A stretch of 64,000 bases of DNA from a virus (IMGVR_UViG_3300020577_013547:313-64312); one strand, 5' to 3'; shown: positions 52,596-57,382, counted from the stretch's first letter. The notes: generated from the sequence alone by a model not told the origin. Numbers and translations are program-made.

Positions 52596-52656
52596 TGTCG
52601 AAACGGTGTGGGCAACCACGCCGTCCAGGAAGCGATTACTTCCTGCTGATGAGACA
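52596..52656 (+). ncRNA. Hammerhead ribozyme 1 (type II), cut after 52625
   Basis: tgtc GAAAC [stem III] GTC [caggaag/cttcctg] CTGATGA gaca. Confidence 0.9.
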
Positions 52657-52678
52657 GTACTCTCAACGAGATGCTGAC

Positions 52679-52912
52679 ATGACGAAGTTCAACGCCACGA
52701 AGTCCATGACCGTGTGTGAGTTCCTGAACACCGTCGGATACGACGTGTTCGTGCTCGTCGTCCTGACGATTCGCGAATGCCGCGAAGAGGGAATGCGGTA
52801 TCGCGAGATCGACGAGGAGTTCAATCTCCCCCTTCGCTCCTGCCGCCTGATGAACGGCGACCGCGCGAAGTTGGTGTGCGACGCGATTCCGGTGACCGAC
52901 ATCGTCGCCTGA
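52679..52912 (+). CDS. Early hypothetical protein
   Basis: Exactly fills HH1-HH2 interval. Confidence 0.65.
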   Translation: MTKFNATKSMTVCEFLNTVGYDVFVLVVLTIRECREEGMRYREIDEEFNLPLRSCRLMNGDRAKLVCDAIPVTDIVA

Positions 52913-52968
52913 GGCCGAAACGCGGGACTCTTCCCGCGTCCACGAGTTACGCTCGTGCTGATGAGGCC
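52913..52968 (+). ncRNA. Hammerhead ribozyme 2, cut after 52940
   Basis: ggcc GAAAC [gcggga/tcccgc] GTC [cacgag/ctcgtg] CTGATGA ggcc. Confidence 0.92.
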
Positions 52969-52993
52969 AGAACGCCTTGAAGAGGACACTGAG

Positions 52994-53143
52994 ATGTTCG
53001 AAGTTCAGCAGCGCATTAACGACGAATGGCAGACAGTCGATGCATCCGATCGCATCGACGAAGCGCTAGAGCTCAAGCGAGACCTCGAGGCGCAGAATCC
53101 AAATGCACAGTACCGCGTGTGGACTGACATCTGCCCGAACTGA
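52994..53143 (+). CDS. 49-aa early protein, copy 1
   Basis: GAGGA RBS; MFEVQQRINDEWQ... Confidence 0.65.
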   Translation: MFEVQQRINDEWQTVDASDRIDEALELKRDLEAQNPNAQYRVWTDICPN

Positions 53144-53149
53144 GACCGA

Positions 53150-53205
53150 GGCCGAAACGCGGGACTCTTCCCGCGTCCACGAGTTACGCTCGTGCTGATG
53201 AGGCC
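53150..53205 (+). ncRNA. Hammerhead ribozyme 3, cut after 53177
   Basis: Identical to HH2. Confidence 0.92.
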
Positions 53206-53230
53206 AGAACGCCTTGAAGAGGACACTGAG

Positions 53231-53380
53231 ATGTTCGAAGTTCAGCAGCGCATTAACGACGAATGGCAGACAGTCGATGCATCCGATCGCATCGACGAAG
53301 CGCTAGAGCTCAAGCGAGACCTCGAGGCGCAGAATCCAAATGCACAGTACCGCGTGTGGACTGACATCTGCCCGAACTGA
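53231..53380 (+). CDS. 49-aa early protein, copy 2
   Basis: Identical to copy 1. Confidence 0.65.
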   Translation: MFEVQQRINDEWQTVDASDRIDEALELKRDLEAQNPNAQYRVWTDICPN

Positions 53381-53386
53381 GACCGA

Positions 53387-53442
53387 GGCCGAAACGCGGG
53401 ACTCTTCCCGCGTCCACGAGTTACGCTCGTGCTGATGAGGCC
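53387..53442 (+). ncRNA. Hammerhead ribozyme 4, cut after 53414
   Basis: Identical to HH2. Confidence 0.92.
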
Positions 53443-53467
53443 AGAACGCCTTGAAGAGGACACTGAG

Positions 53468-53659
53468 ATGTTCCGAATCGAGTTGATCGTCCGTGGCGAT
53501 GCCGCGCCCATCCTGGAGCGGTACGACGAGTGCCTGGCGGACTTCGAGTCGAGCGGCGACCGCCTGACGCTCTTCGCGTGGCCTGAAGCCAACGAGGAGC
53601 TCATGCGGCGACTGGAGCTGGACGACGACGTCCAGTTCGTCCAACCCAAGAATTGGTGA
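53468..53659 (+). CDS. Acidic early hypothetical protein
   Basis: Same leader and RBS as repeat unit; fills HH4-HH5. Confidence 0.65.
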   Translation: MFRIELIVRGDAAPILERYDECLADFESSGDRLTLFAWPEANEELMRRLELDDDVQFVQPKNW

Positions 53660-53661
53660 AA

Positions 53662-53716
53662 GCCGAAACGGCCTTCGGGCCGTCCAGCGAGAATGACCTC
53701 TCGCTGCTGATGAGGC
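53662..53716 (+). ncRNA. Hammerhead ribozyme 5, cut after 53684
   Basis: gcc GAAAC [ggcc ttcg ggcc] GTC [cagcgag/ctcgctg] CTGATGA ggc. Confidence 0.92.
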
Positions 53717-55123: not shown

Positions 55124-55150
55124 GGTCCCTCGAGCGTAGGCGGAAGTACA

Positions 55151-55471
55151 ATGACTGAGTGGAACCGCGATGCGATGGAGTTCGAGGAAGCTCGGTTGCG
55201 CCGCAAGGAGCAACGCCGCTCCATGCCGAAGCAAATCATGCACTGCGCGGACGACCTGCAGAATCCGGATCACCTGGTGCTGGTGTACGCATGCCGAGAC
55301 TCTGCGGAGCGATCGCTTCGGTACACGAAGATGGGCGACGCGATCCTGATGCTCGGGTTCATCGTGACCGAGCAGTTCGGCTGGACGACGCGGCTGCTGC
55401 AACCGTCCCGCGAATTCGCAGAACGGTACCTCGCAAGCCGTCGGCAGTTGCACATCGCAGAATGCATCTAA
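55151..55471 (+). CDS. Early hypothetical protein
   Basis: Fills HH9-HH10. Confidence 0.65.
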   Translation: MTEWNRDAMEFEEARLRRKEQRRSMPKQIMHCADDLQNPDHLVLVYACRDSAERSLRYTKMGDAILMLGFIVTEQFGWTTRLLQPSREFAERYLASRRQLHIAECI

Positions 55472-55528
55472 GCCGAAATGCCTCGCAAGAGGCATCGTGC
55501 GAGAATGACCTCTTGCACCTGACGAGGC
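55472..55528 (+). ncRNA. Hammerhead ribozyme 10, AUC triplet, cut after 55496
   Basis: gcc GAAAT [gcctc/gaggc] ATC (compensatory U-A pair) [gtgcgag/cttgcac] CTGACGA ggc. Confidence 0.88.
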
Positions 55529-55551
55529 AGGTCCCTTGCAAGAGGTGAAGC

Positions 55552-55872
55552 ATGTGGGTTTTCACACGGTACGGATTCTATAGTGCCGTCAAGAAGCAAG
55601 GGCAGGTGCACATCCGAGCACGCCTTGCTTCGCACCTGGAAGCGATCAAGCGACGCTTCGAGGTGAAGGCGAAGATCAGCAAGTCCAAGCATGCGGACTA
55701 CAAGTACCGCATGCTCGTCTCACCAGCCGAGTGGGCTCGCCTCGCCGAGGCCCTCGCCGACGAACTCGACTACCCGAACTTCAAGAGCGAGGTGCTTCGG
55801 AACCAGGGACATACACCGTATGAAGAGGCGCTGCACAAGGTGTGGGCGACGATGCACAAGCTGCAGAAGTGA
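55552..55872 (+). CDS. Conserved phage early hypothetical protein
   Basis: MWVFTRYGFYSAV..HIRAR..ADYKYR..DYPNFKS, a recurrent phage family pattern. Confidence 0.75.
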   Translation: MWVFTRYGFYSAVKKQGQVHIRARLASHLEAIKRRFEVKAKISKSKHADYKYRMLVSPAEWARLAEALADELDYPNFKSEVLRNQGHTPYEEALHKVWATMHKLQK

Positions 55873-55959
55873 GTACCTCGTGCCAGGCCAGAGGCTACAA
55901 TGCTGGCCTGCCGCGAGCTACTGACTCGATTCCGAGCAGAGTTCAACAGGAGACATGCC

Positions 55960-56361
55960 ATGGCTGAGATTAAGCTGTCTGTGGCCTCGGTGGAACTGAG
56001 GACGTGCAAGCTGAGCAAGGCGATCCTCAAGCAGCTCCCCATCTGCAATGGGTGGGACGATCTGCGGCAACACGTCAGTCAGTTCATCCGCTCGCCGCAC
56101 GACGACCGCCGGCTCAAGGACATCGAGGCCAAGTACTCGACGGCAACCGAAGACGAGCGGAAGGAGGCGCAGGAACTCGCTGCCAAGAAGGGCTTCGCCG
56201 AGTACATCAAGATGTACACCGTGGGCTGGATCCATGGCGCGGTGATGGGTGACGAGTTCACCCGGTTCCTGATGGTGCAGACCGAGCCTGGTCAATACGT
56301 CCTCTATCGCAACGCCATGCCGGACACCATCGCCAAGTTCAAGCAGCTGTTCGTGCTCTAA
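55960..56361 (+). CDS. Early hypothetical protein
   Basis: AGGAGA RBS; ends at HH11. Confidence 0.7.
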   Translation: MAEIKLSVASVELRTCKLSKAILKQLPICNGWDDLRQHVSQFIRSPHDDRRLKDIEAKYSTATEDERKEAQELAAKKGFAEYIKMYTVGWIHGAVMGDEFTRFLMVQTEPGQYVLYRNAMPDTIAKFKQLFVL

Positions 56362-56418
56362 GCCGAAACGGGAGGCAACTCCCGTCGTGCGAGAATGACC
56401 TCTCGCGCCTGATGAGGC
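56362..56418 (+). ncRNA. Hammerhead ribozyme 11, cut after 56386
   Basis: gcc GAAAC [gggag gcaa ctccc] GTC [gtgcgag/ctcgcgc] CTGATGA ggc. Confidence 0.92.
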
Positions 56419-56441
56419 AGGTCCCTCTGGAGGCATGCTAC

Positions 56442-56762
56442 ATGCCTACAATCACGTCGAAGCGCTGTCCGCGGTGCAAGAGCACCAAGCAACTCGAAGT
56501 GTCATTCGCGCAGCTCCTGCAGTACGAGCGAGGAGCTCAAATCCAGGATGCGTTTCCGCACCTCAGTGCTGACGACCGCGAGCGGTTCATCACTGGGTAC
56601 TGTCCCAAGTGCTGGAACAGCATCTTCCACAATGTCGATGCGAGCGGCGAGTACTGCTCCTGCGAACAGGATGCAGTGACATGCCAGGAGTGCGGCAAGC
56701 GCGTCTGCGGCACCCTGGTTACCTGGGTTGACGGCAAAGGAAACGTCTGCAATGATCACTAA
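56442..56762 (+). CDS. Cys-rich (Zn-binding) early protein
   Basis: CPRC, CPKC, CSC, CQEC pairs; GGAGG RBS. Confidence 0.65.
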   Translation: MPTITSKRCPRCKSTKQLEVSFAQLLQYERGAQIQDAFPHLSADDRERFITGYCPKCWNSIFHNVDASGEYCSCEQDAVTCQECGKRVCGTLVTWVDGKGNVCNDH

Positions 56763-57123
56763 GCAATTCGTGCTGGCTGGACGCGCGAAGCTTACGATCC
56801 AGCTCCCAGATGGCACTCACCGGACTTACAAGATCGTGCGTGCCAAGAAGACGGGAAAGTACTGGTGTCACCTGCTCACGGCACCAGACACGTACACGTT
56901 CTTCGGCGGCCTAGACGTCTCCACTGGAGCTGTCTCAGGCACTGCCTTCGCTCACCGACTTCTAAGCCGAGTGCTCCAGTGCATCTGGCGTGGCGACGAA
57001 GCATACAAGCCACACGGCTACAACGTATATCACAGTGGGTGCTGCGGCCGATGTGGCCGCGAGCTCACAGTTCCCGCGTCGATACTCTCAGGCATTGGGC
57101 CTGAGTGCTCGAAGTACGTGTAA
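56752..57123 (+). CDS. DUF6011-type Zn-finger protein
   Basis: CGRCGRELTVPASILSGIGPEC. Confidence 0.75.
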   Translation: MITKQFVLAGRAKLTIQLPDGTHRTYKIVRAKKTGKYWCHLLTAPDTYTFFGGLDVSTGAVSGTAFAHRLLSRVLQCIWRGDEAYKPHGYNVYHSGCCGRCGRELTVPASILSGIGPECSKYV

Positions 57124-57165
57124 TGTCATTGGGACATACACTCAACACCCTGAAAGGAGCTTACC

Positions 57166-57318
57166 ATGGAAGCAGGCGATGACGACGATCTGGACCTCGA
57201 GGACGACTTCGAGGACGACGAGGACGAGGACGAGGACGAAGAGTTCGACGAGGAGTTCGAGGACGAGGACGAGGACGAGGACGAGGACGAGGACGAGGAC
57301 GAGGACGAGGACGAGTAA
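57166..57318 (+). CDS. 50-aa hyperacidic peptide
   Basis: AAAGGAG RBS; MEAGDDDDLDLEDDFEDDEDEDEDEEFDEEFE(DE)9; not in ORF track. Confidence 0.75.
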   Translation: MEAGDDDDLDLEDDFEDDEDEDEDEEFDEEFEDEDEDEDEDEDEDEDEDE

Positions 57319-57319
57319 A

Positions 57320-57382
57320 GCCGAAACACAGGGTCGCACGGCCCTGTGTAGCGTGGAGCTTACCTACCACGCCTGATGAGGC
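57320..57382 (+). ncRNA. Hammerhead ribozyme 12, GUA triplet, cut after 57350
   Basis: gcc GAAAC [acagggtc/ggccctgt] GTA [gcgtgg/ccacgc] CTGATGA ggc. Confidence 0.9.

Follow-up and report, generated by a model that had tools for sequence, protein, structure and literature searches.

Twelve type II hammerhead ribozymes punctuate an operon of small genes in an uncultivated tailed phage and are predicted to process its transcript

Introduction

Cleavage by ribozymes of the hammerhead family leaves a 5′-OH and a 2′,3′-cyclic phosphate end. The early polycistronic RNA of bacteriophage T7 is cut between genes by RNase III, a host protein enzyme that leaves 5′-phosphate and 3′-OH ends, and each of the resulting mRNAs has a hairpin at its 3′ end. 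Clustered hammerheads that flank individual genes or short gene blocks have been described in prophages by Perreault et al. 2011 (PMC3088659), who had already proposed that polycistronic phage RNA is processed in this way into single-gene mRNAs. Three triple prophage arrays, those of Agrobacterium tumefaciens (around ardA), Azorhizobium caulinodans and Clostridium scindens, cleave in vitro, and the A. tumefaciens array does so in E. coli as well (PMC3088659). In Desulfovibrio vulgaris, three type II hammerheads cleave in vivo, both cleavage fragments having been captured from cells by cyPhyRNA-seq (Olzog et al. 2021, PMC8782182). The synthetic ribozyme insulator RiboJ, a hammerhead followed by a 23-nt hairpin, is used to normalise the 5′ UTR, and the work on it treats uncleaved mRNA as faster-decaying (PMC7536230).

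Results

The source of the DNA is an uncultivated tailed phage, apparently non-integrated, and genes for a tape measure protein, a portal protein, a primase and a DNA polymerase lie in the window, by which we mean the whole 64,000-nt stretch that was analysed. A structural descriptor (GAAA, a capped stem III ending in U, an H17 that is not G, a capped stem I, CUGANGA and the stem II complement) run over the 64-kb window finds twelve type II hammerheads of ten distinct sequences on the + strand, between 52596 and 57382. The same descriptor finds no further hammerheads in the rest of the window, and it has no matches on the − strand or in 50 shuffled windows. The first-pass annotation of this DNA had claimed twelve copies with an intact core, in ten sequences whose stems differ yet stay paired, and this is exactly what was recovered, with 12/12 cores complete and every stem uninterrupted. 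Judged by sequence, the motifs are genuine type II hammerheads, and self-cleavage is predicted for them.

In order along the + strand the copies are HH1 (52596-52656, predicted cut after C52625), HH2 (52913-52968, C52940), HH3 (53150-53205, C53177), HH4 (53387-53442, C53414), HH5 (53662-53716, C53684), HH6 (53918-53978, C53946), HH7 (54448-54511, C54478), HH8 (54778-54833, C54805), HH9 (55067-55123, C55090), HH10 (55472-55528, C55496), HH11 (56362-56418, C56386) and HH12 (57320-57382, A57350). The recomputed 5′-OH ends, predicted at 52626, 52941, 53178, 53415, 53685, 53947, 54479, 54806, 55091, 55497, 56387 and 57351, coincide with those listed earlier. HH2, HH3 and HH4 are identical because they belong to an exact tandem repeat (52911-53473, + strand, 237 bp × 2.4), and there are therefore ten distinct sequences among the twelve. 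The repeat unit consists of a hammerhead, its leader and a 49-codon gene, and the repeat is bounded by three identical 89-nt copies of hammerhead plus leader.

The conserved core (C3 U4 G5 A6 N7 G8 A9, G12 A13 A14 and A15.1-U16.1) is present in 12/12 copies. Position N7 is U in ten copies and C in two (HH6 and HH10, core CUGACGA), and H17 is C in eleven copies and A in HH12, which has a GUA triplet, but never G. Stem lengths are 3-4 bp for stem II (GGC/GCC in HH7 and HH8), 6-10 bp for stem III and 6-8 bp for stem I, and in all copies stems I and III end in loops and stem II is open. Perreault et al. 2011 (PMC3088659) make standard pairs beside the core their acceptance rule, and the pairs 10.1-11.1, 1.1-2.1 and 15.1-16.1 are found in all twelve; the type II topology assigned in the first pass holds throughout for core, helices and permutation. 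The AUC triplet of HH10 is balanced, as had been noted, by a compensatory 15.2 U-16.2 A pair. In 8/10 distinct copies the minimum-free-energy fold contains stems I and III, and the stem III loops are often GNRA or UUCG. In a comparison with Rfam, which the first-pass annotation had named as a check, HH5 (44.5 bits), HH11 (38.5 bits) and HH10 (37.1 bits) pass the gathering score of RF02276 (37 bits), but 9/12 copies lie under it or are unreported. HH1, HH2 and HH6-HH9 score 26.8-33.6 bits (26.8 for HH1, 28.8 for HH2, 33.6 for HH6, 31.4 for HH7, 31.0 for HH8 and 26.9 for HH9), HH12 is not reported at E ≤ 10, and HH3 and HH4, the same in sequence as HH2, are not listed.

Loop I can form a pseudoknot of at least 4 bp with the 3′ tail, as in most but not all type II members, in 7/10 distinct copies (UACU:AGUA in HH1 and GACCU:AGGUC in HH5, for example). 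The pairing covaries in a relative (GAACU:AGUUC, CGACCU:AGGUCG, GACCU:AGGUC), and over 180 hammerheads its mean length is 4.10, compared with 3.35 ± 0.06 with permuted partners. It is 3 bp in HH8 and 3 bp or fewer in HH2-4, where it is weak, and in HH6, where none is clear; since these copies lack a pseudoknot of at least 4 bp, their cleavage may be slow. In every copy a competing hairpin can also be drawn, in which G8-A9-10.1-10.2 pairs with a covarying NCUC element in the tail (10/10 distinct copies here and 8/8 in the relative G001). This hairpin is incompatible with the active core and could damp or gate cleavage. No mention of this element, which the tail carries in this phage lineage, was found in Perreault et al. 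2011 (PMC3088659).

The array lies downstream of a sigma-70-type promoter (52287-52314, + strand; TTGACA-16 nt-TATACT, extended −10 TG, 11/12 matches), which is the sole near-consensus site in 46-64 kb; the only other consensus promoter sites in the window are a divergent pair at 30353-30419. The promoter on which the first-pass annotation relied is therefore a real near-consensus site, and a promoter of the same type lies 220-360 nt ahead of the first hammerhead, again with a long leader, in two related phages (G001 and L135). Here the untranslated leader (52322-52595, + strand, about 275 nt), which HH1 would cut off, has no convincing ORF; it contains a conserved box, ATCTTTGACAA at ~52410-52420, that is invariant in three otherwise diverged leaders. 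There follow, between 52679 and 58016 on the + strand, fifteen small genes of 49-203 codons with Shine-Dalgarno-like sequences: g1 (52679-52912), g2 (52994-53143), g3 (53231-53380), g4 (53468-53659), g5 (53740-53916), g6 (54033-54434), g7 (54536-54775), g8 (54858-55064), g9 (55151-55471), g10 (55552-55872), g11 (55960-56361), g12 (56442-56762), g13 (56752-57123), g14 (57166-57318) and g15 (57405-58016). Homologues of g6, g7, g11, g12, g13 and g15 occur in relatives. Family matches are absent for 13/15 gene products; g13 matches DUF6011 and g12 weakly matches DUF7351 and phrog_20898. It is plausible that the operon is early and that its genes serve host takeover.

With twelve ribozymes per fifteen genes, all on the + strand and flanking individual genes or short blocks, the operon is punctuated almost gene by gene, in line with the earlier count of roughly one ribozyme per gene. 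The distances from the stop codon to the eleven ribozymes that follow a gene are 0, 6, 6, 2, 1, 13, 2, 2, 0, 0 and 1 nt, within the 0-13 nt given before. The accompanying distance to the next start codon was given as about 22-55 nt; the spacing is 22-27 nt for eleven copies and either 9 or 54 nt for HH6. A wider set of type II hammerheads drawn from viral contigs, 172 of them distinct, has 130 members that begin within −3 to +5 nt of the upstream stop codon, and the next start mostly lies 15-40 nt downstream.

The only long gap that has no ribozyme, upstream of g11, is occupied by a conserved two-hairpin RNA that is not a hammerhead (55876-55947, + strand). In an alignment of five sequences it has 22 pairs with 95.5% of cells paired and 14 pairs changed on both sides, a combination reached by 0/500 shuffles, and it has two invariant bulged A's. 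A covariance model built for it, R1, matches only beside g11 homologues, and a comparison with Rfam gave no match. The slot holds a hammerhead in L135 and L136. Both the two-hairpin RNA and the competing hairpin may be new features.

A search of related phages, proposed in the first pass, was productive: syntenic arrays of 8 and 11 hammerheads lie in the same place in G001 and L135; G001 has 58% identity to this phage in the primase and 44% in the portal. The shared junctions that carry a hammerhead are those before g6, between g6 and g7 (in L135, as HH7 here), after g7 and after g11, whose orthologue is directly followed by one in both G001 and L135, as by HH11 here. Protein identity there is just 36-59%, and the ribozyme stems are unalignable yet perfectly paired. 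Retention of a ribozyme at the same gene junctions argues for a function. The first gene is preceded by a hammerhead in 3/3 relatives, which suggests that the ribozymes help to define the 5′ end and do not only separate cistrons. Unrelated viral contigs also contain arrays, of 7-9 hammerheads. In L134, a phage with a g11 homologue, similar small genes are punctuated by plain hairpins that include no ribozyme; cleavage is therefore not indispensable for such a gene layout.

Discussion

Because relatives carry arrays in the same place, with shared junctions and paired stems, the best reading of the locus, and one that we consider probable, is that the array processes its own transcript into mostly single-gene mRNAs with hairpin ends. 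Host RNA polymerase would start at the strong 52287 promoter and make one long RNA across the small genes, and each intergenic hammerhead would fold during its transcription and cut itself after H17; the fold would comprise stem I, stem III, a stem II of 3-4 bp and mostly the loop I-3′ tail pseudoknot. Such cutting would release a leader of ~300 nt, then eleven internal pieces (315, 237, 237, 270, 262, 532, 327, 285, 406, 890 and 964 nt) and a long downstream RNA; nine internal pieces would carry one gene, one would carry two and one three. An internal piece would start at its 5′ end with the 3′ half of a ribozyme and finish at its 3′ end with the 5′ half of the following one. The G+C-rich stem III hairpin would close each upstream piece, 25-44 nt past a stop codon and with a 2′,3′-cyclic phosphate, and the 5′-OH of each downstream piece would sit immediately at the foot of the hairpin of stem I, which agrees with the earlier prediction of hairpins at both ends. 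A uniform leader of 52-60 nt into the Shine-Dalgarno sequence would result for 11/12 downstream pieces. The likely gains are two: neither adjacent cistrons nor the 5′ triphosphate leader would any longer govern how stable a cistron is and how well it is translated, and host nucleases would be kept from both RNA ends. The stability benefit of hairpin and 5′-OH ends is our conjecture. For the gene-by-gene self-processing put forward in the first pass, the motifs, their placement, the promoter and the conserved junctions all stand, and it is from these that we infer cleavage in vivo and its benefit.

Another view of the locus, which we regard as unlikely, is that a hammerhead and its leader serve mainly as a recombination joint through which small accessory genes are duplicated, swapped or acquired, RNA cleavage being secondary or ancestral; it is compatible with the processing model. 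In its favour, the exact 237-bp tandem duplication is bounded by identical hammerhead-leader copies, 3′ halves are common to HH5, HH10 and HH11, and likewise to HH9 and HH12, with stem III differing, and the relatives differ in gene content and order: in G001 a g15-like gene follows the g6-like one, and g11 is present also in an unrelated phage. However, a joint needs only repeats and neither intact cores nor compensatory stems, yet all twelve cores are perfect and the stems covary, and most copies have too little common sequence to recombine. Less probable again is that cleavage is conditional: the competing hairpin, or weak tertiary contacts in some of the copies, would slow individual ribozymes or place them under the influence of ribosomes, proteins or ions, and the array would tune relative gene expression instead of cutting constitutively. 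The covarying G8-A9-10.1-10.2:NCUC helix of every distinct copy here and in G001 would suit such control, pseudoknot strength varies among copies, and regulated cutting has been raised for phage variants by Perreault et al. (PMC3088659). Thermodynamic modelling, however, gives no consistent change in Shine-Dalgarno accessibility between the states before and after cutting, no ligand-binding or sensor domain is visible, and the published prophage arrays cut efficiently (PMC3088659).

It seems very improbable that the reverse hammerhead reaction, or an RtcB-type ligase, rejoins the excised gene-length RNAs as circles or as spliced products. The stem II strands are compatible for 8/11 internal pieces and the predicted ends are chemical substrates of RtcB (PMC8782182 and its references), but Perreault et al. 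sought circular or spliced products and found none (PMC3088659), once the cut is made the 10.x strand would be tied up in the competing hairpin, and we noticed no ligase gene in the window. We give the least credence to the motifs being inactive relics or chance matches: most copies do score below the Rfam gathering threshold, but the shuffles and the opposite strand gave zero matches, the cores are perfect in 12/12 copies, the stems are compensatory and the same junctions are kept in relatives.

An extension of the self-processing model, which we put forward tentatively and think rather unlikely, is that in this phage lineage the hammerhead belongs to an intercistronic cassette of greater extent, with two features so far undescribed. 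One is a second hairpin: G8-A9-10.1-10.2, set free by the cut, would pair with the covarying NCUC that lies immediately beyond the nucleotides of the pseudoknot. The ribozyme would thereby be locked in an off state, with re-ligation or pairing with another copy prevented, and the second hairpin and stem I would jointly cap the new 5′ end as a compact pair of kissing hairpins. The other is that the two-hairpin RNA can occupy the slot of a hammerhead; it may be a self-cleaving motif of a new kind or else a dedicated site for a nuclease, with the same job.

The processing of T7 early RNA by RNase III is similar in that a polycistronic RNA is cut between genes and 3′ hairpins result; T7 uses a host enzyme, whereas the present RNA would do the cutting itself, with 5′-OH and cyclic phosphate ends as the outcome, and the likeness is one of analogy and not homology. 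RiboJ likewise places a hammerhead and then an extra hairpin before the ribosome-binding site to give each gene a standard 5′ end, but it is engineered from a type III plant-satellite ribozyme and placed singly. The D. vulgaris hammerheads (PMC8782182) are also of type II and near phage-like genes; they occupy three separate loci in contrast to the array described here, for which cleavage is predicted from sequence. The type II hammerheads behind RF02276 (PMC3088659) have the same core, permuted topology, kind of pseudoknot and phage context, but most copies here fall under the gathering score and the tail adds the NCUC element. The closest likeness in layout is to the triple prophage arrays (PMC3088659), in which, too, genes stand singly or in short blocks beside several same-strand ribozymes. 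Those have three ribozymes in about 2 kb, compared with twelve in 4.8 kb here, where the placement is almost strictly from stop codon to leader, one copy stands ahead of the first gene, and the array lies in an apparently non-integrated tailed phage with syntenic arrays in two relatives. The first-pass annotation knew of no described gene-by-gene array, but the layout is that of Perreault et al. 2011 (PMC3088659), and other viral contigs carry arrays of 7-11; the array described here is a large, clean example of the 2011 layout and not a new kind of system.

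Twelve hammerheads punctuate one operon

The first-pass annotation of this phage DNA had claimed twelve hammerhead ribozymes with an intact core at 52596-57382 (+), and our analysis confirmed them. We used a structural descriptor (GAAA, a capped stem III closed by A15.1-U16.1, an H17 that is not G, a capped stem I, CUGANGA and the stem II complement) in place of a hammerhead covariance model because MAFFT misaligned the variable stems. All 12 matches to the descriptor lie on the + strand; the - strand and 50 shuffled windows contain none. The catalytic core is complete and the stems are uninterrupted in every one of the twelve (HH1-HH12, numbered 5' to 3'), and the cleavage positions proposed earlier are those that the descriptor gives. 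Rfam Hammerhead_II supported the set in part: the matches at 53661, 56361 and 55471 exceed the gathering score, and five more distinct window sequences reach 26.8-33.6 bits. Type II hammerheads typically form a pseudoknot between loop I and the tail (PMC3088659). In the window this contact has at least 4 bp in HH1, 5, 7, 9, 10, 11 and 12 and 3 bp in HH8, and is weak or missing in HH2-4 and HH6; it covaries in the related phage G001, and its mean length over 180 hammerheads lies above all 300 partner permutations. The twelve-hammerhead feature is real and statistically unambiguous, and the array is very probably functional. Rfam searches at permissive E-values found no further hammerhead or other ribozyme class anywhere in the window, and no ribozyme classes besides hammerheads in the contigs L134 and L135.

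Eleven of the twelve ribozymes begin 0-13 nt past a stop codon, just as the earlier annotation had it, and in 11 of 12 the start codon lies 22-27 nt after the ribozyme, in most cases with a Shine-Dalgarno sequence resembling GGAG or GAGG. The predicted post-cleavage 5' UTR is 52-60 nt in 11 of 12, with 3' UTRs of 25-44 nt. Ten of the sequences are distinct, which also agrees with the first reading. An exact tandem repeat at 52911-53473, 2.4 copies of a 237-bp unit made up of a ribozyme, its leader and a gene of 49 codons, accounts for the identity of HH2, HH3 and HH4; its third ribozyme-leader copy enters an unrelated gene past two codons. This duplication looks like the product of unequal crossing-over between identical 89-nt modules, and it is possible that the assembler collapsed or expanded the copy number. 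No family match was found for 13 of the 15 array gene products. The ORF at 57166-57318, with HH12 directly 3' of it, encodes 50 residues that are nearly all Asp and Glu from a GACGAG-type repeat; the product is possibly a DNA mimic, or possibly merely a low-complexity ORF. Triple hammerheads in the literature surround ardA, an anti-restriction gene.

The phage and its promoters

The window covers nearly all of an IMG/VR virus record of 64,312 bp, with a completeness estimate of 82%. Structural genes occupy 1-29 kb on the minus strand (tape measure 7557-9788, portal 22706-24385, a MuF-like head protein), and helicase, primase and DNA polymerase genes occupy 29-64 kb on the plus strand. Near-perfect sigma-70-type promoters occur in three places only. 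A back-to-back divergent pair at 30353-30419 matches the consensus at 12/12 in each direction, both with TG; it is placed where the structural and replication arms part, and is likely to be the main early control region. The array promoter at 52287-52314, directly ahead of the array, has 11/12 matches with TG, and because it is of host type the description of the operon as early is plausible. Genes on either side of the array (51369-52043, 59471-61382) encode an FkbM-type methyltransferase, a UDP-glucose/GDP-mannose dehydrogenase-like enzyme and a C-methyltransferase; the sugar genes recur behind the arrays of G001 and L135, which suggests a sugar or DNA-modification pathway.

The phage has no close cultured counterpart, its portal protein being at most about 30% identical to that of any cultured phage. 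The array had no blastn match in 50,697 phage records, the primase had zero relatives among 185,579 species genomes, with no prophage relative found, and a search through g15 gave two marginal matches only.

Related arrays and a general layout

A search with the conserved 3' half returned five viral contigs. One of these, G001 (IMGVR_UViG_3300010399_000040; 67,426 bp, complete, with terminal repeats), is a true relative (primase 58%, portal 44% identity). It carries 8 hammerheads at 5887-10818, in a syntenic position, with orthologues of g6, g11, g13, g17, g18 and g21, preceded by TTGACT-16-TATGAT with TG and a leader of about 220 nt. The second relative, L135, a 66.5-kb Logan contig reached through g11 homologues, has 11 hammerheads within 4.5 kb, seven of them exceeding the Rfam cut-off, preceded by TTGACA-16-TATACT with TG and a leader of about 360 nt; its orthologues are g6, g7, g11, g12, g17, g18 and g20. 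The junctions before g6, between g6 and g7, after g7 and after g11 hold a hammerhead in both the window and L135, the last of them in G001 too, and in all three phages the first gene is preceded by one. Protein identity is only 36-59%, and the stems are unalignable, yet each stem is perfectly paired, as selection on structure would predict.

A box in the leader, ATCTTTGACAA, lies at about 52410-52420 in the window, about 10925 (-) in L006 and about 3900 in L135. The leaders of these three related phages have otherwise diverged, but the box, 100-150 nt past the promoter, is unchanged in all of them. The window contains it once only, and it may be an operator or RNA signal. The leader 15-mer was also considered as a repeated phage promoter and was rejected on its single occurrence in the window.

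Among the matches listed from a loose pattern scan of viral contigs, the unrelated contigs L033, L050 and L046 have 7-9 hammerheads in 3-5 kb. Among the matches listed, 130 of 172 distinct type II hammerheads start -3 to +5 nt from the upstream stop codon, and the next start is mostly 15-40 nt downstream. Phage type II hammerheads thus generally keep closely to the order stop, ribozyme, leader, start, which is no peculiarity of the window.

A single intergenic slot of the window's array, that between g10 and g11 (spacer 55873-55959), has no hammerhead. It holds instead a two-hairpin RNA at 55876-55947, directly upstream of g11, which is kept ahead of g11 homologues in five contigs (other copies: L006 8919-8987, -; L134 5920-5993 and 6426-6493; L137 126-194; L138 189-262), with two invariant bulged A's. 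Its 22 pairs are paired in 95.5% of cells (slid controls 41-52%), and 14 are changed on both sides, matched by 0 of 500 shuffles. It has no match in Rfam. Across about 1.4 Mb of hammerhead-bearing loci its covariance model, R1, hit beside g11 homologues only, the second L134 copy falling just after g11; since R1 was negative in about 130 other loci, a general role in hammerhead arrays was rejected. The RNA may serve as a nuclease site or a translational operator, or may be a new ribozyme. L135 and L136 have a hammerhead in the slot before g11. L134 is an unrelated phage that has g11 alone in common and no hammerheads; at 3976-8571 its small genes are parted by 50-90 nt spacers, each with one strong G+C-rich hairpin and then a Shine-Dalgarno sequence, a ribozyme-free version of the punctuated layout. 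Taken with the two-hairpin RNA and the L135 and L136 hammerheads, these hairpins mean that the intercistronic slot seems to require a structured element, of which the hammerhead seems to be one of several interchangeable occupants.

Probable processing of the transcript and the competing hairpin

Constitutive co-transcriptional self-cleavage is the best reading of the array. It would yield one leader, eleven internal pieces (nine monocistronic) and one long tail RNA. Each upstream piece would end in stem III and a cyclic phosphate, and stem III bears GNRA or UUCG loops in 5 of the 10 distinct copies; each downstream piece would begin with stem I, whose first base would bear the 5'-OH. That a hammerhead stands ahead of the first gene in all three relatives indicates that 5'-end definition matters, beyond the separation of cistrons.

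Folding adds a further element. G8-A9-10.1-10.2 of the core can pair with an NCUC about 6 nt past stem II, within the 20-25 nt after each CUGANGA (for example 53712-53726), with the pseudoknot nucleotides as the loop. The N tracks position 10.2, mostly as GAGG/CCUC, as GAGC/GCUC in HH7 and HH8 and as GAGA/UCUC in HH1. The helix characterises only some of the type II hammerheads in phages: it is present in 10 of 10 distinct window copies, 8 of 8 in G001 and, by eye, 10-11 of 11 in L135, and absent from L033 (0/9) and L050 (0/9). Overall it occurs in 51 of 180 hammerheads as against 11.1 +/- 2.9 with shuffled tails. In an alignment of 30 sequences, all taken from contigs that have the helix, pairing holds in 90% of cells, and the 10.2 pair (GC 20, CG 5, AU 1, GU 2) shows 6 double changes against 1.2 +/- 0.9 in shuffles. 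The helix is incompatible with an active core and also competes with stem II. Our reading is that it would lock the cleaved ribozyme and cap the 5' end; the alternative is that it gates cleavage conditionally. Modelling gave no support to a translation switch, in which the CCUC of the tail would pair alternately with the core GAGG and with the real Shine-Dalgarno sequence: when the constrained uncleaved fold was compared with the free 3' product by ViennaRNA partition functions, SD/AUG accessibility did not change consistently over the 10 distinct copies.

Comparison with known hammerheads

The purpose of bacterial and phage hammerheads is still listed as open in a 2019 review (PMC6765202). 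The locus leaves this question unanswered, but the material that it offers for comparison is unusually rich: 12, 8 and 11 ribozymes at corresponding junctions of three related phages, uniform ribozyme-to-start spacing, a ribozyme before the first gene, a covarying competing hairpin, and a slot that alternates between a hammerhead and another structured RNA. It makes cheaply testable the idea that the ribozymes are natural insulators and end-protectors of phage mRNAs, and designers of synthetic operons can draw compact natural parts from the array. Two elements would merit bench work, the competing hairpin and the substitute RNA.

The first-pass annotation was incorrect in supposing that a gene-by-gene array was undescribed. 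Perreault et al. 2011 (PMC3088659) reported that multiple hammerheads in prophages often flank single genes or short gene blocks; three triple arrays cut completely in vitro, one also in E. coli, and circular or spliced products were sought and none found. Type II hammerheads from Desulfovibrio vulgaris have been shown to cut in living cells (PMC8782182). The array described here belongs to this known kind, and is distinctive in its size, its regularity and the comparative set that comes with it.
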